Notes: generated by a model not told the origin, from the letters alone. A stretch of DNA of 64,000 nucleotides from an uncultured Alphaproteobacteria bacterium (GCA_963823605.1 CAWGMF010000007.1:639-64638); one strand, 5' to 3'; positions 27,068 through 58,257 are shown, counted from the first letter of the stretch. A program made the numbers and translations.

Positions 27068-27120
27068 TCGCTCCGCTTTGGACTACGGCTCAGTGTCAAT
27101 CCGACGCCCGGGTTGGGCGC
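27068..27120 (+). repeat. 53-bp bipartite repeat, degenerate copy D
   Basis: Ungapped match to 16 of the 22 positions invariant in copies A-C. Confidence 0.6.
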
Positions 27121-27237
27121 AATTTAAACGTCTTCTCGTCGTCAATCTCAGGTAAAAGCCGCCAGTCCGGATTGTGCCCTCCTCGGATATTTACACGCGA
27201 GCCGCTGCTCGTCCAAAGCAGTCCGCGCTATAGAGCC

Positions 27238-27752
27238 CTACTCCATCCCGGTTGCGTCCAATCGAGCTTTTCGACGCAAGCTCTGCGGCGGCTGGCCGAA
27301 TGTGCGGACAAAGGCGCGACGCATGCGTTCGCGATCGGCGAAGCCCGTTTCCTTTATGACCTCGTTCACTGAATGGCGCCCCTCCTCCATCATGAATCTG
27401 GCGGCCTCCAGCCGCAGCTGTTGAACCGCCTTCGCTGGCGGCTGGCCAGTTTCGGCAAGAAAAGCGCGGCTGAACTGTCGGGGGCTGAGTCGGGCGACTG
27501 CTGCGAGATCCTCAACCGACAGCGTGCTCTGCAGGTTCTGTCTGATGTGGGTCAATACGGCCTGGATCCGGTCGGACTTCGGGGTCAGGTCAAGAAGTGC
27601 GGAATGCTGCTTCTGTCCACCCAACCTGCGCTGACTTAAGACAAGGAGCCTAGCGACCGACTTTGCGGCCTCGCTGCCCAGGTCTTGATCGATCATAGCG
27701 AGAACCAAGTCGAATCCAGCGGTCATGCCGGCCGACGTCCAGATTGGGCCGC
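27238..27752 (-). pseudogene. 5'-truncated GlxA-family (DJ-1 + AraC) regulator
   Basis: Homology starts abruptly at GPIWTSAGMTAG; intact AraC C-terminus (LSPRQFSRAF, GFADRERMRRAF); N-terminal half missing. Confidence 0.8.
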
Positions 27753-27838
27753 GGGCCAGGATCCTTCGGTCTTGTGCTTGTTTCTGAACTGGCTTCCGAT
27801 CCCCAGTTTGATGTGGTCCGTGCGAAGAACAGGCAGCG

Positions 27839-28590
27839 TCAAACCTGCGCCGATCCGCCATCGGCGAAGAGCTCGCTTCCCGTCACGAAGCTGCTGTCGT
27901 CAGAGGCCAGGAACAGCGCCGCGCGGGCCACTTCGTCGGGGTCGCCGAGACGGCCCGAGCGGCGTGGTCGACTCGACGAAGCTGACCATCTGCTTGTGCG
28001 CTTCGTCCGATGCGGCGAGGTTGTGCCAGCCCGGCGTCGAGGTGGAGCCGGGTACGAGGACGTTCACGCGGATCTTTCGCGGCGCCAGATCGAGGATCCA
28101 GGTGCGGGCGAAGTTGCGGATCGCCGCCTTGCTGGCGCTGTAGACGCTGAAGGCGGGCGTGCCCGTCGTGCCGGCCGTCGAGCCTGTCAGGATGATGGAG
28201 CCGCCGTCCTTGAGCAGCGGCAGCGCCTTCTGAACCGTGAACAGCGTTCCTTTCACGTTGGTCGCGAAGGTCTTGTCGAAATGCTCTTCGGTGATGGCGC
28301 CGAGCGGCGCGAACTCGCCGCCGCCTGCGTTGGCAAACAGAACGTCGATCGTGCCGGCCTCCTCGCGCACGATCGCGAACAGGCGATCCAGATCGGCGAG
28401 GTTCGAGACGTCGCTCTGAATGCCCCTGGCGTTGTGGCCGACGGTCGGCGACGGCGGCGTCGAGCTCCGGTTTGCGACGCCCGGTCATGAAGACGCGCGC
28501 CCCCTCTGCCGCGAACAGCTTCGCGGACGCCAGACCGATCCCGCTGTTGGCGCCGGTGATCACGGCGACTTTGCCCTGCAAACGACCCAT
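27839..28590 (-). CDS. SDR family oxidoreductase (frameshifts)
   Basis: [34 protein letters not shown]. Confidence 0.88.
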
Positions 28591-28639
28591 GACGATTGTC
28601 CTTCCAGTTTTGAAAACACGTGCGCGAGGTCTGTCGCGG

Positions 28640-29577
28640 TCAGGCCGACCGGCGAAAATGAAAGGCGCCGCGGTGGTGCTCGGCGAAGCCCACGCCTGGG
28701 TAGGCCCAATGGTAGCCAAGCAGCCGCGTGCGATCCGTCGCGGCGCGATCGAGAAGCTTGCCGCGCGTGCGGATCCCGAGTTCGGGGTCGGTGTCGTAGC
28801 CGAACCGCCAGTCCGGATGTTCGAAGGACACGATCTCGTTGTTGGCGGCATCGACAGTGATCAGCAGCCCCTCGCCGCCCGCCACCTCGAAAGAGAGATG
28901 CCCGGGCGTGTGCCCCGGCGTGGCGAGGGCGCGGAGACCCGTGACGATCTCGTCACCGGCCTGCAGCATCACGGCACGGTCGCGGACGGCGCCGAGGTCG
29001 CGCTGGGCGCCTCGTGCGAAGTCGTGCAGTGCTGGAGGCATGGTGGTGAGGAAGTCCGGATCGGTCCAGAAATCCCACTCGGCCGCCCCGACGTAGTAGG
29101 TGGCGTTCGGGAAGCGCAGCCGGCCGTTCTCGTCCAGCGTGGCCCAGATGTGATCGGGATGGGCATGCGAGAAGACGATCTTGGTGACCGTGCCCGGGTC
29201 GATCGCGGCGGCCGCGAGATTGTCGGCCAGCCTTGCCGTCCGAGGGCTGGTATCGGTGCCCTGCGCCGATATCGATCAGGATCAGATCCGTGCCGCTCCG
29301 CAGGGCCGGGATGTTGGCTTTGGGCCTGACCCCATCGCCGATCGTGTCCAGGCGCGGCAGGAGCGCGGCGCGTTCGTCCGGCGCTTCGCCCGTGAGCAGG
29401 ATGTCCTGCGGGATCGTGATGAAGCCGTCGCTGAGGATGGTAATGTCGAAGGCGCCTTGCCGGAAGCTGTAGGGCGCCGCGACACGGACTGCAGCTCTGC
29501 GAAGTCGTGGTGCCCGGGGTCGGGAGCGTGCTCTGCCCAGCGCTTCGCCGGTCTAGGGGAGGGTTGCTCATCAGCAT
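28640..29577 (-). CDS. MBL-fold metallo-hydrolase (frameshifts)
   Basis: [34 protein letters not shown] over several frames. Confidence 0.82.
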
Positions 29578-29645
29578 CGGCCTGTCCTTGTGTTCGATTG
29601 AAAGTGTCGCGTCCGGCCGCTGGGCGTTCAGCTTTGGTCGGCGGC

Positions 29646-30200
29646 CTACCCGAAGGCGCGCGCGATCTCGTCTTCGGTGAACCGTGGCGTGATATGCTGC
29701 GGGCAGTTCCAGTCGAAGGCCTGCACCTTGATCAGCACGGCGCGCTCGAGCAGAGCCGGATAGTCCTCGACCGCGAGGTTCCGGACCTTGTCTGGATCTG
29801 TCTCCATGTCGACGAGGCGGGCGTGGCCGAACATTTTGAGGCGCCGCCTATTCGCGTAGTCCATCAGAAAGAGCGAGACACGATCGTTGGCGGCCAGGTT
29901 TCCTGTCGTCACGTATTGGCGGTTGCCGCGAAAGTCGGCGAAGCCGATCTCGTCGTCGCCAAGCACGCGAAGGAAGCCGGGCGGCCCGCCGCGGAATTGG
30001 ACATAAGGCCAGCCTGTCTCGGATACGGACCCGATGTAGAAGCCGTCGCGCTGCGCGATGAACTGGGTTTCGGCGGGCCCAAGCCGCGCATTGACGTCGG
30101 GACCGGTCTCGCGGCGCGCATAGGCGGCCCGGCTGCCCAGCGCCTGCTGTGCGGCCTTCACAGACCCGGTGAAGGCGATGTCGGCGTATTTGTCGCTCAT
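29646..30200 (-). CDS. Pyridoxamine 5'-phosphate oxidase-like FMN-binding protein
   Basis: WPYVQFRGGPPGFL, DFRGNRQY, AFDWNCPQHITPRF. Confidence 0.88.
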   Translation of the reverse strand: MSDKYADIAFTGSVKAAQQALGSRAAYARRETGPDVNARLGPAETQFIAQRDGFYIGSVSETGWPYVQFRGGPPGFLRVLGDDEIGFADFRGNRQYVTTGNLAANDRVSLFLMDYANRRRLKMFGHARLVDMETDPDKVRNLAVEDYPALLERAVLIKVQAFDWNCPQHITPRFTEDEIARAFG

Positions 30201-30219
30201 CCCGACGTGCCCTCGGAAG

Positions 30220-30753
30220 TCATGGTGCCTGGCGCGTGAACACGTCGTCGTGCTCGCGGACATTGGCGCTGTGACAGGCGAAGCAGGTGCGATGCTGCGC
30301 CTCGTCCACGGGCACGCCGCCGACGAAGCGACCGAAACCCCAGCCGCCCGTTGCTTGGTAGCGTTTCGCGTCCTTGACCATGACCTGGATGGTGGTCGGC
30401 GGCCCCGGGACGAAGGCCGGAGCGAACTCGGAGGATTGCTGCCGTTTCCACGCCAGCTTCACGAGGATTGTGCCGTCGGGAAAAGGCAGCGTGCCCGCCT
30501 GATAGGCTTGGAGGGCCTGCCCGTTCCCGACCACGGCGCGCAGCTCGTCCAGCGTGCCCGCTTCCTGCGCGACCGCGATGAGCTGCCACGTGCGGTACCC
30601 CTGCGGGATTGTCACGCCGTAGATGGGCGAGACTGCACCAGCCTTCGCGCTCGAATTGGCGGCCGCTGCCGCGGCCACTACCGAGCCTGCTGTGACGAAA
30701 CAGGCGGCGGTGGCGATCCGCAGCTGCATCATCTCGCGGTTCCCGGCCATCAC
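30220..30753 (-). CDS. Cytochrome P460 family protein
   Basis: Signal peptide, IPQGYRTW, FPDGTILVK, MVKD, GGWGFGRF, C-terminal CFACH. Confidence 0.85.
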   Translation of the reverse strand: MMAGNREMMQLRIATAACFVTAGSVVAAAAAANSSAKAGAVSPIYGVTIPQGYRTWQLIAVAQEAGTLDELRAVVGNGQALQAYQAGTLPFPDGTILVKLAWKRQQSSEFAPAFVPGPPTTIQVMVKDAKRYQATGGWGFGRFVGGVPVDEAQHRTCFACHSANVREHDDVFTRQAP

Positions 30754-31799
30754 GTGGCGCAGACATCGACGACTGCCTGGGCGAAGTCGCGCGGGGCCTC
30801 CTGCGGCAGGTCATGCCCGATGCCGCCGCGGATCAGCCGATGCTCGTACCTGCTCGTGAACTTGCCCGCATAGGACGCCGGCTCCGGATGCGGCGCGCCG
30901 TTCGCGTCTCCTTCGAGGGTGATCGTCGGCACAGTGATGACGGGCGTTGAGGCCAGACGGGATTCGAGCGCATCGTAGCGCCGCTCGCCATCCGCGAGGC
31001 CAAGCCGCCAGCGGTAGTTGTGGATCACAATGCCGACGTGGTCCGGGTTTTCGATGGCCTCGGCGCTCCGCGCGAAGGTGGCGTCGTCGAACCGCCACTG
31101 CGGCGACGCCGTCTGCCAGATCAGCCGGGCGAAGTCTCGCCGGTTGGCCTCGTAGCCGGCCTGTCCGCGCGGCGTCGCAAAATAGAACTGATACCACCAG
31201 CTCAACTCGGCGCGAGGCGGCAGCGGAGTCTTGCCCGCCTCCTGGTTTCCGATCAGGTAACCGCTCACCGAGACAAGGGCGCGGCAGCGCTCCGGCCACA
31301 GCGCCGCGACGATGCACGCGGTCCGCGCGCCCCAGTCGAAGCCGGCGAGAGTGGCGGTCTCGATGCCGAGCGCGTCCATCAGGGCGATCAGGTCGCTCGC
31401 GAGAGCGGCTTGCTGCCCGTTACGGGGCGTGTCCGGCGACAGAAAACGTGTGGTGCCGTAGCCGCGCAGGAAGGGCACGATCACCCGGAAACCCCTGGAC
31501 GCGAGGATCGGCACAACCTCGGCAAAGGCGTGGATGTCGTAGGGCCAGCCGTGCAGCAGGATGACGGCGGGAGCGGAGGCAACGCCAGCCTCGATATAGC
31601 CGACGTTGAGCAGGCCGGCGTCGATCTGCTTCAGCGGAACCGAGGCGCTGCCCGCTTCCGGCTTCGTCTCGCCCTCTGCGGGCCGGGCGAGCCCGAGCTC
31701 TGTCGCGGCGAGAGTCACGGCTGCGACGCCAAGAAGCGTGCGGCGCGTGTGAACCGCAGGGTTGGATGCGACCTGCGACGATGCCTGCCTGATCTGCAC
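30750..31799 (-). CDS. Alpha/beta hydrolase (epoxide hydrolase-like), Tat-like leader
   Basis: LHGWP, GFDWG, GHDLPQEAP; N-terminal RRTLLG. Confidence 0.88.
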   Translation of the reverse strand: MQIRQASSQVASNPAVHTRRTLLGVAAVTLAATELGLARPAEGETKPEAGSASVPLKQIDAGLLNVGYIEAGVASAPAVILLHGWPYDIHAFAEVVPILASRGFRVIVPFLRGYGTTRFLSPDTPRNGQQAALASDLIALMDALGIETATLAGFDWGARTACIVAALWPERCRALVSVSGYLIGNQEAGKTPLPPRAELSWWYQFYFATPRGQAGYEANRRDFARLIWQTASPQWRFDDATFARSAEAIENPDHVGIVIHNYRWRLGLADGERRYDALESRLASTPVITVPTITLEGDANGAPHPEPASYAGKFTSRYEHRLIRGGIGHDLPQEAPRDFAQAVVDVCAT

Positions 31800-31825
31800 T
31801 CGACTTCTCCCATGTCAAAGCCGCG

Positions 31826-32795
31826 TCAGACGCCTTCGTAGACAAGCTTCGTGAACAGCGCGGGGCTGATGACGAACTGGCCCCAAACCGCGTCGTAGGC
31901 TGCGGTCGGCTTGGCGGCGACGATCGCATCGAGCGACAAGTTGCTCTTCTTCAGCGCCGCCACATTGGCGCGGACGCCGACCAGCATGTCGCGGAAGGCC
32001 TGCAGTTCGGCGCGATTGCTCACCGGCTGGCCATGGCCGGGGATGATGATCGTGTGGTCGGTGACCCTGCGCCAGGTTGGTTTCGGCCGCCCGGATCGAG
32101 CCGTCGATGCTGCCGCCCGTGGAGTAGTCGATGAAGGGATAGACGCCGTTCCAGAAGGTGTCGCCCGTATGCAGGATGTCGGGCTCGACGAAGGTGACCC
32201 CGATGTCGCTGTCGGTATGCGCCGGGCCGAAGTAGCGCATGTTCAAGGTCGTGCCGTTGAGCTGCAGCCTGTGTTCATCGGCGAACAGCACGGTCGGGCA
32301 GCGCGGCCGCCGGCAAGGGGGCGAAATCATAGTCCCAGTCTTCCACCCGCTGCATGGTCATCAGGTGCTTGCGGGTGTTCTCGTGCGCCAGGATCTGCGG
32401 CCCGAGCTCGTGCAGCCACGCGTTGCCGTTGGCGTGGTCGAAATGCCAGTGCGTGTTGATGAGGTGCGTGACCGGTTCCGGGCCCAGTGTCGCCAGCGCC
32501 TTTTCCATTTGCGGCCGGGACACGGCGATGCCGGCCTCGACCATGACCTTGCCATCAGGGCCGGTGAGAACCGCGACATTGCCGCCCGAGCCCTCGAGAA
32601 CGGCAACGTTGCCGCGCAGGCGATGGATCGTGATGGGCGTCTTGGCCGCTTCGGCCTGGATGGTCTGGACGATGCCCAGCGCCTCGGCATAGGCTTGGCG
32701 CGGCGTGAGCCAGGGACCCAGCCCCGACAGGCCGGTGCCGAGAGGCAGCACAGGCAGAAGCCACGACGCGACAGACGGTGGGCGCTCTTGATCAT
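31826..32795 (-). CDS. MBL-fold metallo-hydrolase, Tat-like leader (frameshifts)
   Basis: SRRGFCLCC, GSGGN, NTHWHFDH, AHTDSD, HTGD over several frames. Confidence 0.82.
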
Positions 32796-32855
32796 GGAAG
32801 CCTCTCTGGGCCGGAGGGGCGATCGCGACCGGAGGGCGGTCGCGATCGGTCGGGG

Positions 32856-33677: not shown

Positions 33678-33801
33678 GATCTGAAATCTCCGGTTTCTGC
33701 GTGGACCCGCAGACTGCTGCAGGCGGGAGGGGGTGGATCGGTGAACGCGGAAGGCCTGCGGCCGAGCCGGCTGGCGGATGCGTCCACCAGTTCGAGGATG
33801 C

Positions 33802-34821: not shown

Positions 34822-35004
34822 CGGGATGTCTCCTCGGACTCGGTGGCGGCAGGGGCACGATCGAGCGGTTCCGGAGCCGCTCGGGGCGGAATGGGAGGAT
34901 TGCGCGAGCGACTCCGGACCTAATGGATGGACGGTTCGGGCCCGCCGATCTTCTCGATTTGCTCGTTTGTTTCGGAAATGCAGGACGGCGGCGGGCGAAG
35001 GGGC

Positions 35005-44334: not shown

Positions 44335-44575
44335 AATATTAGCCCTCTACATTAGTCTCCAACAACGGCTCCGCGTCACAGGACGGCTGCTCACACCTCC
44401 TCATGGCCGCGAGGTCGCGCCTGATCATCATGCCGCGGTACGTCGCCCGAAGCGTCTCAGGACACGTTCTCTAGCCTCTTCGGTCCATTCTCTCATCGGT
44501 TCTTAGAGGTTTGCCAGGTCGCGGCATAGCTCTATGGACGGAAAACAGCTTCTCGGAATCCGGAAAGATCTGCTC

Positions 44576-45481: not shown

Positions 45482-45919
45482 CGAGCGTTGCTCGCGTGAA
45501 GCGAGGTCGGCCAATGACGTCGACGGCCTCATTCGCTGCTCGGTCTGGTGTTCAAGAACCTTGGTCGAGCTTGGCGCGGCCAGAGGGTAGATGCCTGACG
45601 CTGCTGCCGCGGTCGTAGTTTTTGCCGCGCCTTCGTCGAGCTTTCAACGGGTCACGTCCGGCGTTGTCCGGTCCACGGCTATTCCACTCCGAAGCAGCCA
45701 GTTCGCTTGCGGCCAGTCTGGGACGAAGAGCGGTCGAACGGGAGTGCGCCATTACGGTCGCTCAGCGTCTTAGCGACCGAGCCTCAAAGTGATCGGTCCC
45801 ATCATCGGTGGGCTACGCGACCCTTGGAATCCAAGTCCGCGAACCGCGTGCAAGTGCAAGCCTCGCACTGGGGCGCGTCGCTGTCGACGGTTTAGAAAAA
45901 CGGTACTCAGGCGTGATGC

Positions 45920-46616
45920 CTAGGCGGGGTTCTCGAAATCGCCGGGGCTGTTGTCCGTCGCATACCACTCCGGACTGCGCTTCTGGACGGCCTCGGACAG
46001 CGCCTTACGGACGCCGGCGGCATCGAAATCGTTGGTGTAGACGGGCGAGCCGGGTTGCTGGCGCCACGACTCGTCGAGGCCCCCCGCATCGACCGCATCG
46101 AAGCCGAGCTGATCGATCAGTTTCATCACAATGCCCTTGGCGCGGCTGTCGTCACCGGCAACCGGCAGGGCGACCCGTCCAGCTGTACCGGCGGGCTTAC
46201 CCTTCTCGAAAAGATGCTGGGCATAGATGTTGTTGAACGCCTTGATCACCGGCCGCCCGAGGTGCTTTTCGACCCAGCGGCTTTCGGGCAGGCCATTCTC
46301 GATGTCTTCGATCCGGCCATCCCGGTGGCGAGGATAGTAGTTCCCGGTGTCGATCACGACCGCGCTGTCCGTCCAAACCGGCCAGCAGATCACGAGGCAG
46401 GCGGGGTATCTCCTTTTCCGGGATCGTGACGACAACGAGGTCGACGTCACGGGCGGCGTCGGTTGCCGTCGTGGCCGTGGCTCCCGTCTCGGACGCCAGA
46501 GCGGCCAGGGTCTCCGGCCCGCGGGAGTTCGCGACCTTCACCTGATGGCCGAGCGCGCGAAGACGACGCGTCAGGGCGGCGCCGATGTTACCTGCGCCTA
46601 CAATACCAATCTTCAT
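45920..46616 (-). CDS. NADP oxidoreductase, F420-dependent family (frameshift near 46370)
   Basis: MKIGIVGAGNIG, NSRGP, IDTGNYYP, IKAFNNI. Confidence 0.85.
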
Positions 46617-46706
46617 AGCGGTTCCTTCGGTGTCGATCACGCGACGCGACGGCGCCACGAGATTTAGTTGGGCAGCATGTGGGACAAGCTCGCAATTTGG
46701 AAAGGC

Positions 46707-46831
46707 GAAGTTGACGCCCGCCACCTCCTGGGCAAGCCGGACATGGCCGTGACCCGGCTCGTAGACGTCGTAGGCTTCGTATGCAGGACTTCGGGACCTC
46801 CGGTTCGACGGATGCGGATGCGATGCGCCAC
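46707..46831 (-). pseudogene. N-terminal remnant of a quinone oxidoreductase (MDR/Qor-like)
   Basis: With one indel reads VAHRIRIRRTGGPEVL-YEAYDVYEPGHGHVRLAQEVAGVNF, then homology stops. Confidence 0.7.
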
Positions 46832-46883
46832 GGAGACCGTCCGAATTCATGGAAACCGCACCTCGCGATTCGGCGGGCGCCGC

Positions 46884-47175
46884 TCAGAACGCCCAGTCGA
46901 CGAGCTGCTCGCCGCCGGTGACGTCGAGAACAGTGCCGGTGACATAGGGATTGGTCATCAGGAACACGGCGGCGTGCCCGACGTCGGCGGCTTGGCCGAG
47001 GCGGCGCGCCGGGAACTTCGCTCGCACCTTCTCGCGGACGGCGGCGGCGTCGGCCTCGGAGAGGAAGGTCCAGAAATCGGTATCGATGAAGCCGGGCCGG
47101 ATGGTGTTCACCCGGATCGGGCCGAGTTCCAGCGCGAGCGAGCGCCCCAGCGCCTCTACCGCGGCGAAGGCCGAC
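46884..47175 (-). pseudogene. 5'-truncated SDR oxidoreductase
   Basis: AVEALGRSLALELGPIRVNTIRPG...VTGTVLDVTGG; no Rossmann N-terminus. Confidence 0.8.
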
Positions 47176-47619
47176 GTCGGCTATGCCGGGCTGCAGGTCA
47201 CCGACCGTGGCACGCTGCGATATTACATCGGGGACGCCAGGTGGTGCTGGGTGGATGCCGAGGACGTCGCAGATGTTGCGGCCGCTGTCCTGCGGGCACC
47301 CCATGTCCACGATGGCGATACCGATCGGCTCGGCTACGACGTCAAGAGTTTCGGAGAGGTTGCGGCTATCATCGCGGATGTGATTGGCCAGCCCTTCCGC
47401 GATGAGGCTCGTCCACCGAGTGAGTTCTTGGAGGCCATTCTCAATGCCGGGGCGAGCCTGGCCTATATGTCGTGTGTCCATGACAGTTTCTCGCGCCTGT
47501 CGCACGGAGATCTTCACGGGTCGGACCAGACATTCGACAACTTCACCGACATAACGGGGAAGTTGCCCACCACCATGAGAGACTTCGTGAGCAGGCACGC
47601 CGAATACTTTCGTTACTAA
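47176..47619 (+). pseudogene. 5'-truncated NmrA-like/extended SDR gene
   Basis: WVDAEDVADVAAAVL, EVAAIIADVIGQPF, ITGKLPTTMRDF; no start. Confidence 0.75.
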
Positions 47620-47792
47620 GGTTCGGCTTCGGCGTGAGCCAGGAATTTGCATTTGGTTGTTCGTGCAGGCCGCCATAATGGCTGGCCGGTGATAAGCGAC
47701 GCAGCCCCGCCGCTCTTTGCTCAAGCTGGCCGAGTTCGGCCAAGCTGTGTGTTCCCGCAATGGCCATAGACGTCCATCTCCATCGACGGATA

Positions 47793-47845
47793 AACGGCGG
47801 CTTTCGGGCGCCACGGCAAATCCGCTGAACGACGCTAGTGGGCGC
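47793..47845 (+). repeat. 53-bp bipartite repeat, copy A
   Basis: aacggcggctttcgggcgccacggcaaatccgctgaacgacgctagtgggcgc. Confidence 0.8.
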
Positions 47846-48526
47846 TAAGCCACGGTCGCGAGTGGCCGCTTGGTGTCGACGCCGGTGCGCTCGATAAGCG
47901 CATCCCAGCTGGTCGCGCGCATGCTGGGGCGCGATTTTATCCGATCGAGCCAGGCGGAAAGGTTCGGGTGCGCGGCGAGCAGGTCGCGGCCTTCCTGATA
48001 TTCAAGCAAGAAGGAGAGGTGGGCGCCACCATCAGGTCGCCGAGCGAGAGGTCTCGCCCGCAAAGAAGAGTTGGTCGCCCAGCAGCCGGCGAGTTCGGCC
48101 ATCACGACGCGCGCCGGCTCCATCCCATTCGCCACTGCCTCCTCGTCGGGCTCGAGACCCAGCAAAGGGACGATCCGTCGGTTGAAACTCAAAACCGCGC
48201 TCACCTGGCGCACGACATAGTCGTTGGTAAGGCTGATCATCTGGTCGACCCGCGCGGCCTGTCGTGGGTTTTCCGGGCACCAGTGCCGGACCCGCACAGA
48301 CCCGATCGAGATAGCGCAGGATCGCGTGCGTCTCGTAGAGGCGGAAGTCGCCATGATCGAGCGTTGGGATCTTCTGGAACGGGTGGATCGCGAGATAGTC
48401 GCGCGCGCGGTGCGCGCCCATCGGGATCGCCGCGAGCGTCCAGTCGGCGCCTTTTTCTTCCAGCGCGAGCGCGACCGCGCGGACATAGGGGCTGCCGGGA
48501 ATGCCGTGCAGCGTGAAGTCGGTCAT
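47845..48526 (-). CDS. Glutathione S-transferase family protein (frameshifts)
   Basis: GSPYVR, HPFQKIPTL, LYETHAILRYL, HPNLSAW...SRPSM. Confidence 0.85.
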
Positions 48527-48987
48527 CGTTCGTCTTCCTGATTGGCGAAATCGGCGAAGTCCTGGAGCCGGGTCGGCCAGCCGCCGGACAGCTGCGCGAC
48601 GACCCGCTCGGCGCTCGGACCGAATCGCTCGAGATGCCGGTGCTCCAGCGTCACACGCGTGCCCGTGCCTTCGGGCGCGAACGTCACGAGCACCTCGGTC
48701 TCACAGGCCGGATCGTGGCTGAAGCTTGCGTCCAGGTGCCAGGCAAGCAGAATCCGATGCGGCGGCTCCCACGCGATCACCTTGCCCCAGTCGCACTGCG
48801 TGCCAGCCTCGTCCTCCTCATACCAGCGACCCCCGGGCTGCGGCTCGAGTACGATGGCGCGGTGCGGGCTCTTGCCGATCGTCTTGCCCTTGCTCCACCA
48901 GTCGCCCATGCGGGCCGCGAAGAGCGCGAAGGCGCGGTCTGGCGGGAGCTTGACCGAAACGGTCTGAATGATCGGCGCGATGCTCAT
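48523..48987 (-). CDS. SRPBCC/AHSA1-like protein
   Basis: WGKVIAWEPPHRILLAW, GTRVTLEH, GGW; GAGGAG RBS. Confidence 0.85.
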   Translation of the reverse strand: MSIAPIIQTVSVKLPPDRAFALFAARMGDWWSKGKTIGKSPHRAIVLEPQPGGRWYEEDEAGTQCDWGKVIAWEPPHRILLAWHLDASFSHDPACETEVLVTFAPEGTGTRVTLEHRHLERFGPSAERVVAQLSGGWPTRLQDFADFANQEDER

Positions 48988-49303
48988 TGGCCTCCTCGGG
49001 CTGGGCGTTGGCGAAGTCCTCGAAGTCGGCGAGCGCGACGGCCCAGAAGCCTTCGAGCCACTCGCGCACCGCGGCGAGGCCGCGCGGATCGATGCTATAG
49101 ATGCGGCGCGTGCCAACGGCGCGTTCGATCACCAGCCCGGCTTCCTTCAGCACCTTCAGATGTTGCGAGACCGCAGGGCGGGAGACCGGCAGCGCCGCCG
49201 CGATTTCGCCGACGGGTGACGGGCGCGCCGCGACGTGCTCGAAGATCGAGCGACGGGTCGGATCGGCGAGGGCCTCGATGGCCGCAGCGACTCGGTTGGT
49301 CAT
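48984..49303 (-). CDS. ArsR/SmtB family regulator (3' end probably overlaps the SRPBCC start; likely indel)
   Basis: ALADPTRRSI, VSRPAVSQHLKVLKEAGLV. Confidence 0.88.
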
Positions 49304-49327
49304 GGCTTACAGTAAGCCATAACTTAC
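49302..49327. promoter_or_regulatory. Overlapping inverted repeats, probable ArsR operator
   Basis: ATGGCTTAC-A-GTAAGCCAT (49302-49320) and GTAAG-N6-CTTAC (49312-49327) abut the ArsR start codon. Confidence 0.65.
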
Positions 49328-49418
49328 GCTACAGTCAAGCGTCTGCCGAGACGCACTGGGACGAGCCCGCTCGTCATATGCTCGCGCAAGGGCATTGGAC
49401 GCACACGTTACCTGATCC

Positions 49419-49471
49419 AGCGGCAGCTTCTGAAGTCGCCCTGATGACCGTTGAGCGGCGGGAATGGGCGC
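49419..49471 (+). repeat. 53-bp bipartite repeat, copy B (diverged tandem copy at 49477-49529)
   Basis: agcggcagcttctgaagtcgccctgatgaccgttgagcggcgggaatgggcgc. Confidence 0.8.
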
Positions 49472-49869
49472 ATCCTTGCCGGAGCTATTCTGCCCGAAAC
49501 TGGATGCCGCCAAGGTCCGTATCGGGTCGACACTACGGTTTGAGTGCCGGCCAGCTAATGTCCGGAAAGTGGCAATCGGCCAACGGCAGCTTTTAAGCGT
49601 ATCCTGGGGGCGACCTGTCCGTTCCCTTAGGAGCGACGGACGGGACAAGGAGAATTGCCGCTGAGGTTACCGCTTGCACCCCTGCAGCTGCCCGTGGCAT
49701 TGGGCATCTTTGAGGCCGAGCCCTCGTTTTAGAGCGGTTTGCATACAGGGCTTTGCGGGAGCGCTTGTATGACTTTGGTGTTCACGGACTTGAATGTGTC
49801 AGTGAGAAACGGAGAGGCCCTTTTTCGGGAAGTTCGACCGTCAATGTCGGGTACGGCTTAGAAAGAGCG

Positions 49870-51515
49870 ATGCAGAGCGAGGCCAATACACACAGGGCAC
49901 GAGAGCTAACTGAGATTCTGGTCGGCTGGCCGAGCGTCACCGGAACAGCCGATGAGGCCAGCTTCCCTTCGAAGCTGGCCGAACTCCTGCTAAAGACACC
50001 GTACTTCCAGAACCATCCCGGCGATCTCCTGGTCGCGCCCATTCCAGGTGACCCGCTGGGCCGATCGAACCTTCTGGCGCTTGTCAGGGGCGGCGGGCGC
50101 CGGACCGTTCTCCTCACCGGCCATTTCGACGTCGTGCCTGAGGATAATTACGGGGACTTGGCCGGTCTCGCTCGCGCGCCAGATGCATTGCGGGCCGGCC
50201 TTATCGAGAGAACTCCAGCGGACGGGGACACACCCGCAGGCGCTCGCTGACTTGCAGTCGGGTCGCTTCGTCCCCGGCCGTGGCATGCTCGACATGAAGA
50301 GCGGCCTCGCGGCCGGTCTTTGCGCGCTGGAGACCTTCGCGGCTGATCCATTGGTCGGCAACGTGCTGTTCGTTACCACGCCGGACGAGGAGGACCGCTC
50401 GACCGGCATGCGGGCCGCCGCGGTCATGCTGCCCGGCTTTCTGCGCGACCGCGGAACTCGACCCCGTTCTCGCCATCAACCTCGACGCAATCTGTGACGA
50501 AGATGCCGGCGAGACAGGCCGGATGGTGGCGATGGGGTGTCTCGGCAAGCTGCTGCTCAGCGCCATGGTGGTCGGCAAGGAGGCGCATGCGGCCTATCCG
50601 TTCGCCGGCGTGAACGCGGCCTATCTTGCGGCCGAGTTGATCATCGAGATTGAATGCGCGCCCGCGCTGGCCGAGTTATCAGGCGCGGAGCTTGCGGCGC
50701 CGCCAACCGTGCTGGGCGCCAAGGACGGAAAAACGCTCTACAACGTCACAACGCCGGGCGACACTTGGTTGTTCTGGAACGTGCTCGTGCACCGCAGGAC
50801 GGCGGCCGAGGTGCTGGCCATCGCTCGCAGGAGCGCCGAAGCCGCCATCGCGCGCGGGTCGGCCCGGATGCGGGAGCGGGCCGGCGCCATTGGTCAGACG
50901 CTGACGGCGGCCGATGCCTGGTCGCGCACGACAGTGCTTTCGTTCGTCGAGCTGTTCGAGCGCGCCGGGCAGACGGATCCGGCCTTTGAAGCAACCTTCC
51001 GGGTCGAGGCGGAACGGCTCGCCAGCGAGGCCGCCCTGGACCTGCCGGAGCGTAGCCGGCGGCTGACCCGGCTCGCTTGGGAGGCGTCCGGCCTCGAAGG
51101 GCCTGCAATCGTGCTGGGTTTCGCGTCGACGACTTATCCGGCAATTCCATGGGCCGGTGCAGCCAAAACTGAGCAGGCCATCAAGGTCGCCGTTGCGGCC
51201 ATCGCGGACGAGCTCGGCGTGTCGATCCGCACGCAGGATTACTATCCGGCCATCGCCGACATGAGCTTCCTCGGCCCGGTGGACCGGGCCGACCTCCGGC
51301 ACGCCGCTGCCAACACGCCCGTGTGGGGGAGTAGCATCGCCTGGAACCTCGACGCTGAGGCAACGCCCGCCATTCCGTCCATCAACATTGGGCCCTGGGG
51401 GCGCGACTATCACCACTCGCTCGAACGGGCCGATGCCGATTACGCCTTCCGCGTGTTGCCCGAGCTTCTGTCGAGCGTCGTGCGAAGCGTGTTGGCGGCC
51501 GGAGCTGAACCATGA
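49870..51515 (+). CDS. RocB-like M20 metallo-hydrolase (frameshifts near 50210 and 50460)
   Basis: LTGHFDVV, GRGMLDMKSG, PDEEDRS.GM, GKLL...GKEAH, NIGPWGRDYH. Confidence 0.85.
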
Positions 51516-52195
51516 GCGGCGGCTCTCCGGTCGGCGCCGGGGCTGCCGAGAGCCACGCGGAACCGCCGCGGCTACACACGCGGCCCGAGTGGGAACCGGA
51601 GCACGGCGCTGCGGCCGACCTGATCGACCGCTCGGTCATTGCGAGCTTCGTGACAGCCGGTCCCGGCGGGCTGGCGGTGTCGCACCTGCCGTTCCTTCTC
51701 GACCGCAGCCGGGGCCCACATGGCTGCCTCGTGTCGCATCTCGCGGTCGCCAATGCGCATGCGGGGCTGGTCGCGGCCGGACTGCCGAGCGTCGCGATCT
51801 TCAAGGCCGAGCAGGGTTATATTTCCTCGTCCTGGTATCCGGCGGCACCCGTGCGCGACAGCGCGCCGACGTGGAACTTCGCCGTGGTCCATTGCCATGG
51901 GCGGCCGAAGGTGCTCGGTGCCGCAGCGCTCGCGCGACACCTTGCCGACCTCGTCGGGCACCTCGAGCGCGGCCGTGAGGGCGCATGGAGCCTGAGTGAG
52001 CTTGGGCCGGGCGGTATGGCGCGCCGCATGCCCCATATCGTCAGCTTCGAGTTGCCGATCGAGCGCCTCGATGCGAAGTTCAAGATGGGGCAAGACGAGC
52101 GCGCCGGCGACACCAAGGCTGCGATCGAGCGGCTGGCCGATACGGGTGAAGATGGGCTCGCGACGCTGATGCGGCGGTGCAATCCGGGGCTGTAG
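51512..52195 (+). CDS. PaiB-like FMN/heme-binding split-barrel protein
   Basis: SHLPF, SHLAVAN, YISSSWY, PTWNFAVVH, KFKMGQD. Confidence 0.85.
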   Translation: MSGGSPVGAGAAESHAEPPRLHTRPEWEPEHGAAADLIDRSVIASFVTAGPGGLAVSHLPFLLDRSRGPHGCLVSHLAVANAHAGLVAAGLPSVAIFKAEQGYISSSWYPAAPVRDSAPTWNFAVVHCHGRPKVLGAAALARHLADLVGHLERGREGAWSLSELGPGGMARRMPHIVSFELPIERLDAKFKMGQDERAGDTKAAIERLADTGEDGLATLMRRCNPGL

Positions 52196-52261
52196 TGTTT
52201 GGTCCTGGAGGGCGATGCGTCCTTGCTGTTCTGTTTGGCATGCGAAGCACCCCGCAACGGC

Positions 52262-53146
52262 TCACAACCTCACATCCAGCGAGTCCCGGATGCCGTCGCC
52301 GACGAAGTTGAAGCTCGTGACCGCGAGGGTGATGGCGAGGCCGGGGAAGATAGCGAGCCAGGGCGCGATCAGGAGATCGCTCTGCGCATTGGTCAGCATG
52401 TTGCCCCAGCTCGCGACCGGCGGCTGGATGCCATAGCCCAGGAAGCTGATGTAGACTTCGAGCAGGATCGCGTTGGCGGTGTTGAGCGTGGCCGCGACGA
52501 GGATCGGCGCCAGCGTATTCGGCAGCAGCTGGCGCAGGACGATGCGCCACGACGACGCCCCGAAAGCTGCGCCGCGAGCACGAAATCGGCCGCTTGAGCG
52601 ACAGCATCTGGCCGTAGACGATGCGCGCGATCTCCATCCAGCAGGTGAGCCCGATCATCAGCACAAGCGAGAGTAGGGTGGGGCGGACGAAGGCCGCGAC
52701 GAACAGCAGGAGAAAAATGTTGGGGAAGCACAGCATCATGTCGGTGAGCCGCATCAGCACGGTGTCCGACCCAGCCGCCGAGATAGGCCGCGAAGGCGCC
52801 GACGAGCGAAGCCGACCACCACCGTGACCAGCCATCGCGGCGATGCCGACCGACAGCGAGATCCGGCCCGCGTAAATGAGGCGGCTGAGCACGTCGCGGC
52901 CGAGGTCATCGGCGCCGAGGATGTGCCCCGGCGTCAGCGGCGGCGCATAGGCGGCGTCAATGTCGAGTCGCAAGCGGGTCGTAGGGGGCGAGCCAGGTGC
53001 GCAAAGACCGTGGCCAGGATGAGGAGAACCACGACGCCGGCACCCACCACCGCGAGGCGATGGCGGCCGAAGCGCCGCAGCGCGCGGCCGCGCGGGGCGA
53101 TATGCGCGACCTGCTCGAGATCGGCCGTGGCTGTCAGGTCCGTCAC
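52262..53146 (-). CDS. Peptide ABC permease (DppC/OppC-like; frameshifts)
   Basis: HILGADDLGRDVLSRL, EVYISFLGYGIQPP..SWG. Confidence 0.85.
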
Positions 53147-54108
53147 GGCATGCCCCCGAGCCTGATCCGCGGATCGATCCAGCGCGATCAGCAGTCGGCC
53201 AGCCAGATTGCCGAGCACGACCAGTGACGCGCCACCATCAGGATCGCCATCAGCACCGGATAGTCGCGCATCGAGAGCGAGTTGACGAAGAGCAGCCCCA
53301 TGCCCGGCCAGGTGAACACGGTCTCGGTCACCAGCGCGCCGCCGACCAGCAGGGGGAGTCTGCAGCCCGAGCAGCGTGACCAGCGGCACCAGGGCGGCGC
53401 GCAGCCCATGCCCGAACAGGACGCGCGCACGCCGACAGACCCTTGGCGCGGGCGGTCCGCATGAAGTCCTGGTTGAGGATGTCCAGCATCGCCGAGCGGG
53501 TGTAGCGGCTCCATTGCGCGACCAGCACCAGCGCCAGCACCAGCATCGGGCAGCACGAGATGCCAGAGCGCGTCGCGCAAGCCCCCCGCCGCCGAGCGGC
53601 ACGATGCCGCCGGCCGGAAGCCAGCCGAGCTCCTGCGCGAAAATGTAGATGGCCAGCAGGCCGAACCAGAACGTCGGCAGCGAAAGCGCCAGCATGGCCG
53701 CGGTCGTGGTCGCGTAGTCGAAGACGGAGTAGCGCCGCACCGCGCCAAGGATGCCGATCGCCACGCCGATCAGCAGCGCGAGGGTCAGGCTCGTTCCCAT
53801 CAGCAGGAGCGTCGCCGGGATCCGCTCCAGCACCAGCCCGGCCACGGGCCGCCCGCCGAAGAAGCTGAAGCCCCAGTTGCCGGCAAGCAGGTTGGACGGC
53901 CCATTTCAGGTATTGCACGTAGACCGGCTGATCGAGCCCGAAGATCACCTTGATGCGCTCGATGTCCTGCGCCGTGACGGTCGGGTTTAGCGTATAGACC
54001 GCGAGCGGGCCGCCGGGCGCAAGTTGCATCAGCGCAAAGCCGATGATCGAGACCCCGACGAGCAGGATCGACCGACTGGACAAGCCGTCCGAGAATGAAC
54101 CGAGCCAC
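53143..54108 (-). CDS. Peptide ABC permease (DppB/OppB-like; frameshifts)
   Basis: FGLDQP, LPTFW, QDFMRTARAKG, TETVFTWPGMG. Confidence 0.85.
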
Positions 54109-54138
54109 TTGCCCCGCCGCGCGTCAGAGCCGAACGCG

Positions 54139-55859
54139 TCAGCCGACCGCCCACTCGTTGCAGTTCCAGGAGTTGATCGGCCACGTAGGCGTTCGGCTTG
54201 TAGTTCGTGCACCGGTCTTGTCGGTTCCCATGATCAGCTGGTAGGCGAACATCGGCGCGAACGGCAGGTCGTCGAGCAGGATTTCCTGGATCCGGTCGTA
54301 GATCTCCTTGCGCTCGGCCTGTCGACCTCGGCCACCCCGTGCCGCAAAGCTCGTCGATCTCCGGGTTCTGGTACTGGACGTAGTTCGCGCCCGATGCCGC
54401 CCTTGGCCGGGATCTGGTTGCTCATGATGCGGGCGCTGTAGTCGGGGTCGGGGTAGAGCAGCGGATCCCAGGCGACCATCAGCGTGTCGAACTTTGCTCT
54501 TCACCGTGTAGTCGCCCCAGACCACCGACGCCGGCATGTTGTTGATCGTCATGTCGACGTTGATTTTCTTGAGGTTCTGCTGCACGAACTGCTGCGATTG
54601 CTCGCGCGACTTGTTGCCGGCCGTCGTCGACATGGTGAAGGACAGCTGCACGCCGTCCTTCTCGCGCACGCCGTCCGATCCGACCTTCCAGCCGGCTTCG
54701 TCCAGCATCGCGGCCGCCCTGGCGGGGTCGTAACCGGGATCCTTGAGGGCGCTGTTGTAGGCCCAGTGGTTCGGCGGCAGATAGCTCAAGGTTCGGCTTC
54801 GGCACGCCGTAGTAGAGCTTGTCGATCAAGCCTTTCTTGTCCATCGCCATGTAGAGGGCCTTGCGCACCCGCTTGTCGCTGAACTGCGGCTTGCCGCAGT
54901 TGAAATAGATGAACTCGACGAAGGACGTCGACATCGCTCAGCATCGATCTTGTTCGGCAGCTGCTTCGCGCGCGGAAGTAGCGGCGGGATGCCCTGCAGG
55001 TCGTAGATCTCGACCTGGCCGGTCTGGAACTGGGCGTACAGCGTCTGCTGGTCCGGCACATATTTCTGGACCAGCGTGCTCAGGTGCGGGCCGTCGCCGT
55101 GGTAGTTTGGATTCCGCTCGAATTCGATGTGGTCGCCCGCGACGCGCTTCTTGAATTTGAACGGGCCCGTGCCGACGGGCTGCGTGTTGAACGGCGCCGT
55201 GTTGATGTCGGGGATGTCGGCGAGCAGGTGCTTCGGCACGATGCTGGTCTTCTGCCAGGACACGAGGTACGGCGCGAAAGGCTCGCCGAGCGTCGCCTTG
55301 ATCGTGTGGTCGTCGACGGCCACTAGCTCCTTGACGTGGTCGTGGCCCGTTGCGGCTGCGGACCGCGATCTTCGGATTGATCATGGTCTGGTAGCGTGAA
55401 CACCACGTCCTTCGCGGTGAAGGGCGTGCCGTCATGCCACTTCACGTCGGGCCGAAGCTTGATCGTCCAGGTCAGCCCGTCGGCCGAAACGCCGCCGTTC
55501 TCCTTGGTCGGAATCTCGGTCGCGAGGTTCGGGATGAACTTGCCGGCTTCGTCGATCTTCCAGAGCGAGTCGAACACGGCGAACTCGACCGACGTCTCCA
55601 CGCCCGTGTTGACGTAGAGCAGCGGATTAAAGTTCACGGCCTCCTGCGTGTAGCCGACCACAAGCGTCCCGGCTTCCTGGCCTGCCACACGCTCGATCAG
55701 TCCGTCAGCGGTGGGCGCCTTCGCAGGCTTCGGGTCAGCCGAAAACGCCTTGGCGACCGAGCCCGCCCCGAGCGCCGTTCCGAACGCCGTGGCGCCGGCC
55801 AGCACTCTTCGGCGATCCAGCGTGTGCCCGCGTCCTGTTTCCTTGGTTCCGTTCGACAC
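54139..55859 (-). CDS. Peptide ABC substrate-binding protein (family 5), Tat leader; frameshifts
   Basis: RRRVLAG, KWHDGTPFTAKDV, PVGTGPFKF, FSDKRVRKAL. Confidence 0.88.
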
Positions 55860-55959
55860 GTAAGCCCCGCTGTTCCAAAGATTGGACGGTCGACCAGATC
55901 CAGCGCCTTGCGTGTGATCTGTCCCGTCCGTACCCTAATGTCCTCGACTGCAAATTTGC

Positions 55960-56970
55960 TTGTCAAGCGACCCAAGTGCCGGACACTCTTTGCTCGCCAT
56001 CCGAAATCTGACCGTAACCTTCCGCTCCGACACGGGCTCGACCCGCGCCGTGGATGGCATCGACCTCGACATCGCCCCTGGCGAGAGGCTCGGAATCGTC
56101 GGTGAAAGCGGATGCGGCAAATCGACTGTCGCGATGGCCGTGATGCGGCTTCTCCCGCCCCAGGCCACGCTCGACGGCAACGTTGAGTTTTTCGGTACCA
56201 GCCTGACCGACCTCGACGAGAAGGGCTTGCGGAGCATTCGGGGCCGTACGGTTTCGATCATCTTTCAAGATGCCATGTCTTCGCTCCACCCGATGCTGCC
56301 GGTCGGGCGGCAAATCGTGGAAGCCATCCAGGCGCACGAACGGATTTCGGCTAGGGCGGCCCGGCGGCGGGCGCTGGACCTGCTCGAGCGCGTCGGCATT
56401 CCCGCGCCCGAGCTGCGGATCGACGCCTACCCGCATGAGCTATCGGGCGGGATGTGTCAGCGGATCATGATTGCCATGGCGATCGCCTGCGAGCCGCAGC
56501 TCATCATCGCGGACGAGCCCACGACGGCGCTCGACGTCACGGTCCAGGCGCAGATCTTGGACCTGCTCGATGAGATCTGCCAGCGCAGCGGCGCCTCCGT
56601 CCTCTTGATCACGCATGACCTCGGGGTCGTGGCCGGCAAGACCGATCGCGTCGTCGTCATGTATGCGGGCCGCGTCGTCGAAGCGGCGACGACCGAGGAT
56701 CTCTTCGCTGGGGCGCGCCACCCTTACACGCAAGGGCTGCTGCGCTCTGTTCCCCGCATGGACGTCGGCATCGGCGAGGATCTGCCGACGATCCCCGGCA
56801 GCGTCAGCCAGATCGTAAATCCGGTCGGCTGCCGTTTCGCGCCGCGGTGTGGCTACGCCCAGGACATCTGCCGGGCGCAAGAGCCGCCCTTGGAGCCGGT
56901 CGAGGCCGCTCACCTGAGCGCGTGCTGGTTCAGCGCCACCATCGCCGAACGGCACGGCGTGGCGGCCTGA
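55960..56970 (+). CDS. Peptide ABC ATPase (DppD/OppD-like)
   Basis: GESGCGKS, YPHELSGGM, ADEPTTALD, GCRFAPRC. Confidence 0.92.
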   Translation: MSSDPSAGHSLLAIRNLTVTFRSDTGSTRAVDGIDLDIAPGERLGIVGESGCGKSTVAMAVMRLLPPQATLDGNVEFFGTSLTDLDEKGLRSIRGRTVSIIFQDAMSSLHPMLPVGRQIVEAIQAHERISARAARRRALDLLERVGIPAPELRIDAYPHELSGGMCQRIMIAMAIACEPQLIIADEPTTALDVTVQAQILDLLDEICQRSGASVLLITHDLGVVAGKTDRVVVMYAGRVVEAATTEDLFAGARHPYTQGLLRSVPRMDVGIGEDLPTIPGSVSQIVNPVGCRFAPRCGYAQDICRAQEPPLEPVEAAHLSACWFSATIAERHGVAA

Positions 56971-57965
56971 TGGACATCGCCGTCCGCCCCCTCGTCGAAG
57001 CCCGGAACCTCAGCATCGGCTTCGATCTCGGGCGTAAGAGCCTGTTGTCCCGTGAACGGCGCACGCTCTGGGCCGTCGACCGCGTATCGCTCGCGGTCGA
57101 TCCGGGCGAAACTTTGGGACTGATCGGTGAGAGCGGCTCGGGCAAGACGACGCTCGGACGGGCCATGCTCGGCATCTATACGCCCAGCGCCGGAGAGGTG
57201 CTGTTCGACGGTCAAGCCGTAAGGGGCATCTCGAGACCCGACCGCCGCCAGTTCCACCGCCGGGCGCAGCTCGTCTTCCAGGACCCCTACTCGTCCCTCA
57301 ACCCCCGCATGACGGTGAGTGGCAGCCTTACCGAGCACCTGCGCAACCAGGGTTATGCGAAGGAAGGAGCGATACCGGCGCGCGTCGATGAGGTGCTGGA
57401 CCTTGTCGGTCTCGGGCGACGGTTCGGGGCCCGTTATCCGCACGAATTGTCTGGTGGCCAACGACAGCGGGCCGTCATTGCGCGCGCAATCAGCACCCGC
57501 CCGGACTTCCTTGTGGCGGACGAGCCTGTCTCGGCCCTCGACGTGTCGATCCGCGCCCAGGTCATGAACCTGATCCGCGACCTGCAGGCCGGCATGGGGA
57601 TGACGCTCCTATTTATCTCCCACGACCTCAGCGTCGTGGCACACCTGTCACGCCGAATTGCGGTCATGTACCTCGGGCAGGTCATGGAGGTGGCGAGCCG
57701 CGAAGCCCTGTTTCGGCGCGCGCTGCACCCCTACACCCATGCGCTTCTGTCGGCGGCGCCCATCCCGGATCCCAAGCTCGAGAAGCATCGGCGACGGTTG
57801 TTGCTGACGGGCGAGATCCCCAACCCGACGGAGGCGCCGCCCGGGTGTCGGCTGCAAACCCGATGTCCACGCGTCAGCGATCGATGCCGGGTCGAGAAGC
57901 CGCCGCTGGCGGAAATCGAGCCAGGCCACCGCGTGGCCTGTTACCATCCTGGCCCGGCGGCTTGA
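56970..57965 (+). CDS. Peptide ABC ATPase (DppF/OppF-like)
   Basis: GESGSGKT, LSGGQRQR, ADEPVSALD, VACY. Confidence 0.92.
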   Translation: MDIAVRPLVEARNLSIGFDLGRKSLLSRERRTLWAVDRVSLAVDPGETLGLIGESGSGKTTLGRAMLGIYTPSAGEVLFDGQAVRGISRPDRRQFHRRAQLVFQDPYSSLNPRMTVSGSLTEHLRNQGYAKEGAIPARVDEVLDLVGLGRRFGARYPHELSGGQRQRAVIARAISTRPDFLVADEPVSALDVSIRAQVMNLIRDLQAGMGMTLLFISHDLSVVAHLSRRIAVMYLGQVMEVASREALFRRALHPYTHALLSAAPIPDPKLEKHRRRLLLTGEIPNPTEAPPGCRLQTRCPRVSDRCRVEKPPLAEIEPGHRVACYHPGPAA

Positions 57966-58029
57966 GCTTGGCTTTTCCAGAGAACGAAGCTTTTCCGAAA
58001 CGTTGACGGCGTTCTCGTTCGTCGGCTGT

Positions 58030-58082
58030 AATGTCCGCTTCGTGTGTTCGCCGCAGCTGTCCTGAACGGCTCAGATGGGCGC
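58030..58082 (+). repeat. 53-bp bipartite repeat, copy C (diverged tandem copy at ~58090-58143)
   Basis: aatgtccgcttcgtgtgttcgccgcagctgtcctgaacggctcagatgggcgc. Confidence 0.8.
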
Positions 58083-58257
58083 AGTGCCGTCCGGCTGCTC
58101 TTCGGCTGAACCTGGCCGTAAACGGAACGACGGCTTTGGCACCGGCGAGTGCGGACAACTGCCGTTCTTTCGTGTCGCGAACGTGGCTGCGTCGACACCT
58201 TTGCTGACGCTGGGTGACTTCAGCGATGCACCGATCGACAGCGATGGAGCGCTCGCG

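Follow-up and report, generated by a model that had tools for sequence, protein, structure and literature searches.

A 53-bp intergenic repeat as a candidate recombination site for small tyrosine recombinases of alphaproteobacterial plasmids and islands

A 53-bp, non-palindromic repeat found between genes of an uncultured alphaproteobacterium is probably a recombination site of a family of small tyrosine recombinases (sTR) that are common on alphaproteobacterial plasmids, a reading to which a rough probability of 0.6 is given from sequence comparisons. The repeat was studied in a 64,000-nucleotide stretch of DNA, hereafter the window, which corresponds to positions 639-64638 of contig C7 of assembly GCA_963823605.1 (genome G000; 26 contigs, 4.9 Mb, 68% complete). 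Two extensions of this reading are less likely than not. The first is that blocks of cargo genes lying between successive copies, such as A-B and B-C in the window, are exchanged as cassettes. The second, equally doubtful, is that repeat and recombinase together make up a cassette system, integron-like but unrelated to integrons, on plasmids and islands of the Hyphomicrobiales and perhaps of the wider Alphaproteobacteria. Genomes, contigs and loci are referred to below by G, C and L numbers, respectively, where they need to be told apart.

A sequence-only reading of the window had described copies A, B and C of the repeat, and all three are present, align without gaps and have the described boxes in common (Table 1). 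The consensus given there has five exact matches in the 4.9-Mb genome, compared with ~6e-4 expected from base composition. A model-based scan of the genome, proposed in the same reading, was carried out with repeat models built from the copies (iterated nhmmer and a sequence-only covariance model; R1), and it returned 15 matches at E<=1e-9. One of these (C18 169849-169938; L010 6050-6139; E 1e-10) lies within conserved surE, and its core is degenerate (TGGGCCA); this false positive had been part of seed alignments A2 and A3, and its removal leaves 14 strong copies. A further window copy, site E, had been overlooked. Copies A, B, C and E are all intergenic, as had been claimed for the first three, which are co-oriented; E lies on the minus strand. 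Site B is the most diverged of these four, site C lies 62 nt downstream of a DppF-like ATPase gene, and site E is orthologous to a copy in G022 (L055 5651-5742).

The basic unit of the repeat consists of box1 (GAAYGKCCGCTTTYGG), ~18 nt, box2 (CTGAACGAC), 5 nt and the core TGGGCGC, often followed by AAAG, and the consensus of a 38-copy alignment reads GGAACGGCCGCTTTCG, ~18 nt, CCGCTGAACGAC, N5, (GA)TGGGCGC, AAAGCCGAAYGTCCGCTTTTGG. Direct copies of GAAYGNC are contained in the boxes, and box1 is repeated after the core and often once more further on. A second core-like motif, TGGCCG or TGGCGC, is enriched 30-70 nt past the first core (34%, versus a background of ~10%). At site C it is present as CTGGCCG at 58112-58118; at site E, whose own core is degenerate (ATGGCGC, 45746-45752), the same CTGGCCG occurs ~44 nt 3′ of the core. 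Because box1 recurs after the core and the second core-like motif is enriched, the stretch of 53 bp from box1 to core, the extent originally proposed, seems to be the basic unit, with partial units stacked behind it, and the 95-nt repeat looks like one such unit plus a degenerate second one.

The repeat is not characterized by a conserved fold. The hairpin that had been read from the right box is found in copy B as an imperfect 8/11 stem but is not conserved across copies: RNAalifold gave 0 consensus pairs on 15 copies, RNA fold z-scores for those copies ranged from -2.6 to +0.6, with one below -1.3 and no excess stability across copies, and single-stranded DNA z-scores for eight copies (-1.1 to +0.5) revealed no hairpin. 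Neither did an RNA family or terminator already described account for the repeat. Rfam gave no match at gathering score over the window, and only chance snoRNA matches with E>1 over 45600-49800, while none of 13 terminator-like matches in 45500-58400 falls on a site unit or core; a weak stem of 5 pairs (58144-58128, minus strand) overlaps a doubtful box1 copy behind site C. Judged by eye, the boxes do not fit the spacing of sigma-54 or extracytoplasmic function (ECF) promoters.

R1 matches were found in 23 of the 24 genomes first sampled from the same genus, that of Lichenifustis flavocetrariae, at 2-27 copies each and a roughly estimated density of ~2 sites per Mb. Outside the genus but within the order, matches were weak. 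The family also occurs on plasmids of Methylobacterium, Mesorhizobium and Aminobacter, with at least 7 copies on pMRAD01 of Methylobacterium radiotolerans, near 339.8, 340.6, 342.6, 356.2, 434.4, 449.5 and 539.9 kb. Most sites follow a gene of their own orientation and are located between convergent genes, and many of those in G018 are on a 4.6-Mb contig that is presumably the chromosome. Co-oriented clusters include five sites at 1.85-1.89 Mb of G018, two threesomes in G011 and A-B-C in the window. In fragmented assemblies copies are often found at contig ends, and half copies, left only or right only and broken at the core, are frequent.

The first line of evidence for recombination is the position at which homology ends. 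In five independent paralogous pairs, one boundary of the shared DNA lies within the repeat, at TGGGCGC or a motif like it. In the within-genome pairs, the shared flank starts at -13 to 0 or ends at +6 to +7 from the T of TGGGCGC, and the other half of the repeat differs (Table 1). Left and right arms also assort independently across copies; for example, the right arm of site C is ~90% identical to copies in G005 and G024 exactly from the core (position 0) onward. Likewise, the 1.46-kb homology between the site E region and G022 stops at 45705, directly past CTGGCCGYAAGC, at the second core-like CTGGCCG, and in G011 a stretch of 2055 bp is duplicated exactly from TGGCGCATCCTGGCCGAAAGC onward, a point 51 nt 3′ of a site core. 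These breaks, together with a tyrosine recombinase gene linked to the repeat across genera, agree with the initial suggestion that the repeat behaves like a recombination site.

The linked gene encodes sTR, a tyrosine recombinase of ~210 aa that consists of the catalytic domain only and has no core-binding domain. It matches PF00589 at E 3.6e-21 and 76 bits (cut-off 27), as a member of the tyrosine recombinase superfamily, and its catalytic residues (R, K, HxxR, H, Y) are intact, all six aligning with those of XerD. XerD and XerH are its closest structural relatives by sequence, at only ~29 bits. In at least nine loci of the genus, only 34-74 nt separate the stop codon of an sTR gene or fragment and a convergent copy of the left arm plus core. 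Layout and distance are the same in M. radiotolerans pMRAD01, Mesorhizobium AR07 and Aminobacter MSH1 pAM01. The site models matched at corresponding offsets in five loci, namely two in the genus, pMRAD01, Mesorhizobium AR07 and, more weakly, Agrobacterium RAC06. Moreover, the stretch from ATGGGCGCGAAG to ...GGAGAGCaTGGCCG is common to six independent sTR insertions, which have only family-level similarity beyond those points. Since these insertions are alike between two core-like points, the sTR gene is itself a cassette that runs from core to core between direct repeats of TGG(G)C(C)G..AAG. The order of elements within it is core, terminator hairpin, sTR gene (antisense to the site), box1 half-site palindrome and second core-like TGGCCG. 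Several sTR copies and fragments with such cassette-like boundaries occur per genome, and sTR genes stand singly among cargo genes. The plasmid database PLSDB holds sTR at 479 places in 409 plasmid records, mostly one per plasmid and annotated only generically as 'tyrosine-type recombinase/integrase'.

Taken as a mechanism, sTR would act on the site and exchange strands in or beside the core, and as a result the DNA to the right of the core would move separately from the left-hand unit. The enzyme's gene would occupy a core-to-core segment antisense to the site, and sites A, B, C and E would be sites without a recombinase cassette, either junctions of joined accessory blocks or empty targets. 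In its full form, with cargo blocks moving as well as the sTR cassette, the system would consist of a cassette-borne sTR swapping multi-gene blocks between 53-bp non-palindromic sites at TGGGCGC, giving rise to co-oriented arrays such as A-B-C.

Several observations weigh against this reading. The boxes of the site are direct repeats, without the inverted arms around a 6-8-bp spacer that are usual for tyrosine recombinases, and close to a conserved core the ends of BLAST high-scoring segment pairs can be placed only to within about +/-10 nt. Genome G000, at 68% completeness, has just two sTR fragments. G018 (98% complete) has 13 sites and no sTR found with the query used, so that sites can persist after loss of the enzyme or be used by a different one. 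Further recombinase genes, namely serine resolvase fragments and a DUF6538-type integrase, also abut sites. Upstream of sTR, a core-prime and right arm can be seen by eye in close relatives, where the right-arm model found nothing significant. Finally, the window modules had been put forward as mobile units, and this is not supported: the B-C block is colinear in G005 with no repeat at either end.

The alternative that survives best, itself unlikely, is that the repeat is an older, independent element resembling repetitive extragenic palindromic (REP) sequences, bacterial interspersed mosaic elements (BIMEs) or rhizobium-specific intergenic mosaic elements (RIMEs), and that sTR is a selfish, integrase-only element targeting TGGGCGC while the cargo stays unmoved, much as IS1111 elements target attC and 'res hunters' target res. 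The findings in G018 and G005 just given would follow readily from this, as would the great excess of solo sites over sTR genes, the REP-like placement downstream of co-oriented genes and between convergent ones, and the fact that the only core-to-core mobile unit shown holds sTR alone. Against it stand the core junctions in pairs that lack sTR (L034/L143, L136/L140 and L053/L176). The sTR cassette, in turn, carries its own core and box1-like half-sites, which would fit with the boxes being its binding motifs. The repeat resembles REP, BIME, RIME and miniature inverted-repeat transposable elements (MITEs) in that it is short, intergenic, multi-copy and mosaic, often lies between convergent genes and has stacked partial units. 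The REP/MITE interpretation that had been offered as an alternative failed on the defining features. The repeat has no palindrome, no fold and no Rfam family, and no Y1 transposase of the REP-associated tyrosine transposase (RAYT) type (PF01797) was found in G000, G018 or G022, where it was also sought as a partner enzyme; its arms carry direct copies of GAAYGNC/box1 and no inverted termini.

It is a good deal less likely that sTR and a single site serve plasmid multimer resolution, in the manner of ResD/rfsF, Cre/loxP or XerS/difSL, and that solo copies are relics of replicon fusions or decayed plasmids with no ongoing cassette traffic. The usual single sTR per plasmid in PLSDB, its solitary position among cargo genes and the placement of the recombinase gene beside its site, as in XerS/difSL, are all compatible with such a role. 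They are offset by the multiple sTR copies and fragments with cassette-like boundaries per genome, by 7-27 sites per genome in co-oriented clusters and by the many sites on the presumed chromosome of G018. Finally, that the repeat is a plain mosaic intergenic element with no part in recombination, its breakpoints being alignment decay around a conserved box and the recombinases a mere reflection of a setting rich in mobile elements, is highly improbable; IS3, IS5, IS66 and IS91 elements and gene fragments do fill these regions and synteny does break at nearly every gene, but sTR stop codons keep the same distance and orientation in four genera, five independent long-flank junctions fall within ~13 nt of a 7-nt motif, and both ends of six sTR insertions lie at core-like motifs.

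If the repeat is a recombination site of sTR, one functional parallel is the integron. As with attC, co-oriented sites separate gene blocks and exchange would occur at a short conserved box that ends the site; a cassette would span core to core with its own site at the far end, and at site A the stop codon (47845-47847) of a 213-aa minus-strand open reading frame (ORF) abuts the core. The R''-L''/L'-R' palindrome and single-stranded hairpin that define attC are absent, and GTTRRRY does not occur in the 38-copy alignment, where the conserved boxes are GCTT, GAACG.C and TGGGCGC. The sTR protein scores 19-24 bits against the IntI model TIGR02249 (cut-off 265), has ~210 aa and is itself inside a cassette, and the window blocks are multi-gene with genes in both orientations.

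The pdif sites are 28-bp, 11-6-11 sites used by host XerCD and arranged in alternating orientation. In Acinetobacter they are reported to be short, dispersed sites that bracket multi-gene accessory modules, with mosaic breakpoints at the sites (PMC9947245, PMC9455709), and the present repeat resembles them in bracketing multi-gene accessory modules on plasmids and islands whose mosaics are broken at the sites. It differs in its 53-bp arrangement of direct-repeat boxes plus core, in its co-orientation and in its link to a small, dedicated recombinase, and a comparison of the consensus with Xer dif sites by eye revealed no dyad around TGGGCGC beyond CGRC...GCCG. Accretion of integrative elements and cis-mobilizable elements (CIMEs), as in ICESt1 and ICESt3 of Streptococcus, builds tandem direct att-like sites at one chromosomal attB and involves full-length integrases with arm-binding domains. 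Direct arrays of att-like sites, integrase-less cargo between them and half-sites at array ends are shared with the repeat, whereas the sites of the repeat are scattered and its integrase cassette contains the recombinase alone.

Other recombinases offer partial likenesses. IntA, a tyrosine recombinase of Hyphomicrobiales plasmids, joins replicons via a short site in both directions, and its site on Rhizobium etli plasmids, attA, is the 23-bp palindrome TCCGATAAGCATTACTTATCGGA (PMC4928290); attA is unlike the repeat and has 0 matches in G000 at up to 4 mismatches. FimB and FimE resemble sTR in having ~200 aa and no core-binding domain, and sTR matches a tyrosine-type DNA invertase model weakly (E 2e-4), but Fim invertases flip a promoter via 9-bp inverted repeats, whereas the sTR-linked sites are direct and dispersed. 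In XerS/difSL and XerH/difH, as here, the recombinase gene adjoins its own site. Overall, the repeat system would work like integron cassettes, pdif modules or att accretion, yet it lacks the features by which attC sites, REP/RAYT systems and MITEs are defined. The searchable literature, which is incomplete for subscription journals, held no description of the site, so that a prior description is possible.

If sTR does recombine these sites, large alphaproteobacterial plasmids and islands would have a simple means, so far undescribed, of building up and reshuffling their accessory genes, which in the window include efflux, detoxification and transport functions, and integrons and pdif modules would be joined by a third kind of site-bounded module system. 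Such activity would also provide a function for a recombinase present in hundreds of sequenced plasmids, and a compact pair of recombinase and site for genome engineering in rhizobia and methylobacteria. The cultured type strain M. radiotolerans JCM 2831 has both the site and sTR, whose gene (WP_012329816.1) occupies 352204-352836 of pMRAD01, which makes the idea directly testable.

Table 1. Repeat copies and intervals in the window (window positions), within-genome pairs sharing a flank (positions relative to the T of the core), and named loci in which sTR lies beside a site. CM, covariance model; HMM, hidden Markov model.
Feature	Position	Strand	Details
Site A	47789..47884	+	CM 49.8 bits, E 4e-14; left-arm-plus-core HMM E 5e-11
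Site A, basic unit	47793-47845	+	box1 AACGGCGGCTTTCGG, box2 CTGAACGAC, core TGGGCGC 47839-47845
Site B	49415..49509	+	unit 49419-49471, core 49465-49471; CM 42.2 bits, E 1e-11
Site C	58027..58119	+	unit 58030-58082, core 58076-58082; CM 54.1 bits, E 2e-15
Site E, overlooked in the sequence-only reading	45708..45798	-	CM 52.6 bits, E 5e-15
Extra box1 behind site B (stacked partial unit)	49582..49604	+	5.1 bits, E 0.02, local search; pattern match
Extra box1 behind site C (stacked partial unit, weak)	58125..58143	+	pattern match GAACGACGGCTTTGGC; 1.7-3.5 bits
Copy D with facing weak copy	27068..27223	D 27068-27120 +; neighbour 27153-27223 -	doubtful decayed inverted pair
A-B interval, putative core-to-core module	47846..49418	-	213-aa ORF, SRPBCC (AHSA1), ArsR; all antisense to sites
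B-C interval, putative module	49472..58029		M20-like gene (RocB in the sequence-only reading), PaiB, Dpp transporter
L034/L143	shared -1 to ~+398		89% identity
L148/L152	shared -12 to +776		93% identity
L045/L047	shared -13 to +542		94% identity
L136/L140	shared -371 to +7		78% identity
Named sTR-site loci	G024 C109, C96, C91; G011 3555429, 3559677; G005 C32; G022 C7; G014 C5		

Copy D, read earlier as a fourth member of the family, did not withstand the search: it is not recovered genome-wide, and a local 2-kb search gives only 7.5 bits (E 0.004). Its inverted neighbour scores 9.3 bits locally and E 0.035-0.09 genome-wide, and D is at best one half of a decayed pair. Inverted pairs of the repeat with overlapping 3′ ends occur in G000 at C8 10944-11159 (L007 5945-6160), C1 43676-43821 and C24 4001-4158. 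The C8 pair directly follows an IS66 transposase fragment, and a pair of this type, since decayed, may also account for the D region of the window.

Gene calls in the window were based on ORFs, GC content at third codon positions (GC3) and Pfam. Among the genes named previously, ArsR, SRPBCC (AHSA1), PaiB (FMN_bind_2) and the Dpp ATPases were recognized by Pfam, but the ORF taken for a glutathione S-transferase ('GST', 47845-48486) has no Pfam match. Elsewhere in the genus the A-B genes have homologues of only 65-70% identity, none of them on a contig for which a repeat match is listed; a plasmid megablast of the window gave distant, gene-level matches only. Synteny does break at E, C and a copy on C17, as one of the proposed checks asked, but a break of this kind is weak evidence by itself because synteny breaks at almost every gene there. 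The presence or absence of G011 'site 3' was compared with G021; the region is colinear and the site is too weak to count.

The sequence-only reading had also nominated a recombinase/IS91 pair at the start of the window as the enzyme, a proposal that was not upheld: the Y2 transposase is split over three frames in G000 and its family is uncorrelated with the repeat, not being found in G018, G022, G011, G020 or G002, which have 7-13 repeat copies. The IS91-type element occupies window 2-1693 (C7:323-1806) with an ORF matching Zn_Tnp_IS91 and Y2_Tnp, and the tyrosine recombinase that precedes this ORF begins before the window start. Because its Y2 domain is split over three frames, the gene is probably a pseudogene; an intact pairing of integrase and IS91 was seen in G024 (C142, 8736-10316). 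Two further candidate partners were rejected, IS110 (PF01548), which is absent from G000, G018 and G022, and, as a general partner, serine resolvase, which adjoins sites in only one sub-lineage and as truncated genes.

A second sTR lineage, at 73-80% identity, was found at L166, L168, L171 and L172 (G007, G015, G042). Its stop codon is followed by a different conserved element of ~95 nt (..CTCTCCACCCGTCCTCGCCTGCC..AGCCGAGCCACCATCGGCCCTGGGTGAGGTAGG), which may represent a second site family. At L148, L152 and L155-L162, the DNA upstream of the sTR start has a palindrome in common, TTCTCC..GGCCA(n3-5)TGGCC..GGAGAA, which overlaps the ribosome-binding site and may be an autoregulatory operator; in the copies from the genus its arms read as box1 half-sites (ACGGCCG).

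Larger duplications and gene fragments also occur beside sites. In G018 (C1, 1.651 and 0.912 Mb; L049/L050), a block of >4.6 kb encoding LysR and an ATP-binding cassette (ABC) transporter is duplicated at 99.8% identity and ends ~55 nt past the site core. One copy has an IS3-family insertion (~1.28 kb) 78 nt upstream of the core, and the other an IS5-type transposase fragment just past the site. In the window, two gene fragments lie back to back in 46706-47619, joined at 47177/47178, and a repeat copy comes after each (E and A). The minus-strand fragment is the C-terminal half of a short-chain dehydrogenase, a gene that is intact in G022, and the plus-strand one a C-terminal NmrA-like piece; a deletion or rearrangement has thus removed both 5′ halves. 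At site C, the GntR/FCD ORF (58071-59021, minus strand; 316 aa) has an FCD match that ends at profile position 81 of 125, its homology to G016 and contig C8 starts only at ~58271-58309, and its last ~65 codons extend into the site and stacked units; the 3′ end of this gene seems to have been replaced. Finally, a minus-strand gene at 45920-46450 encodes a 176-aa protein with no Pfam domain, whose relatives in Acidobacteriota, Streptomyces, Caballeronia, Eremiobacterota and Verrucomicrobiota are 65-77% identical, and the gene is widely transferred.

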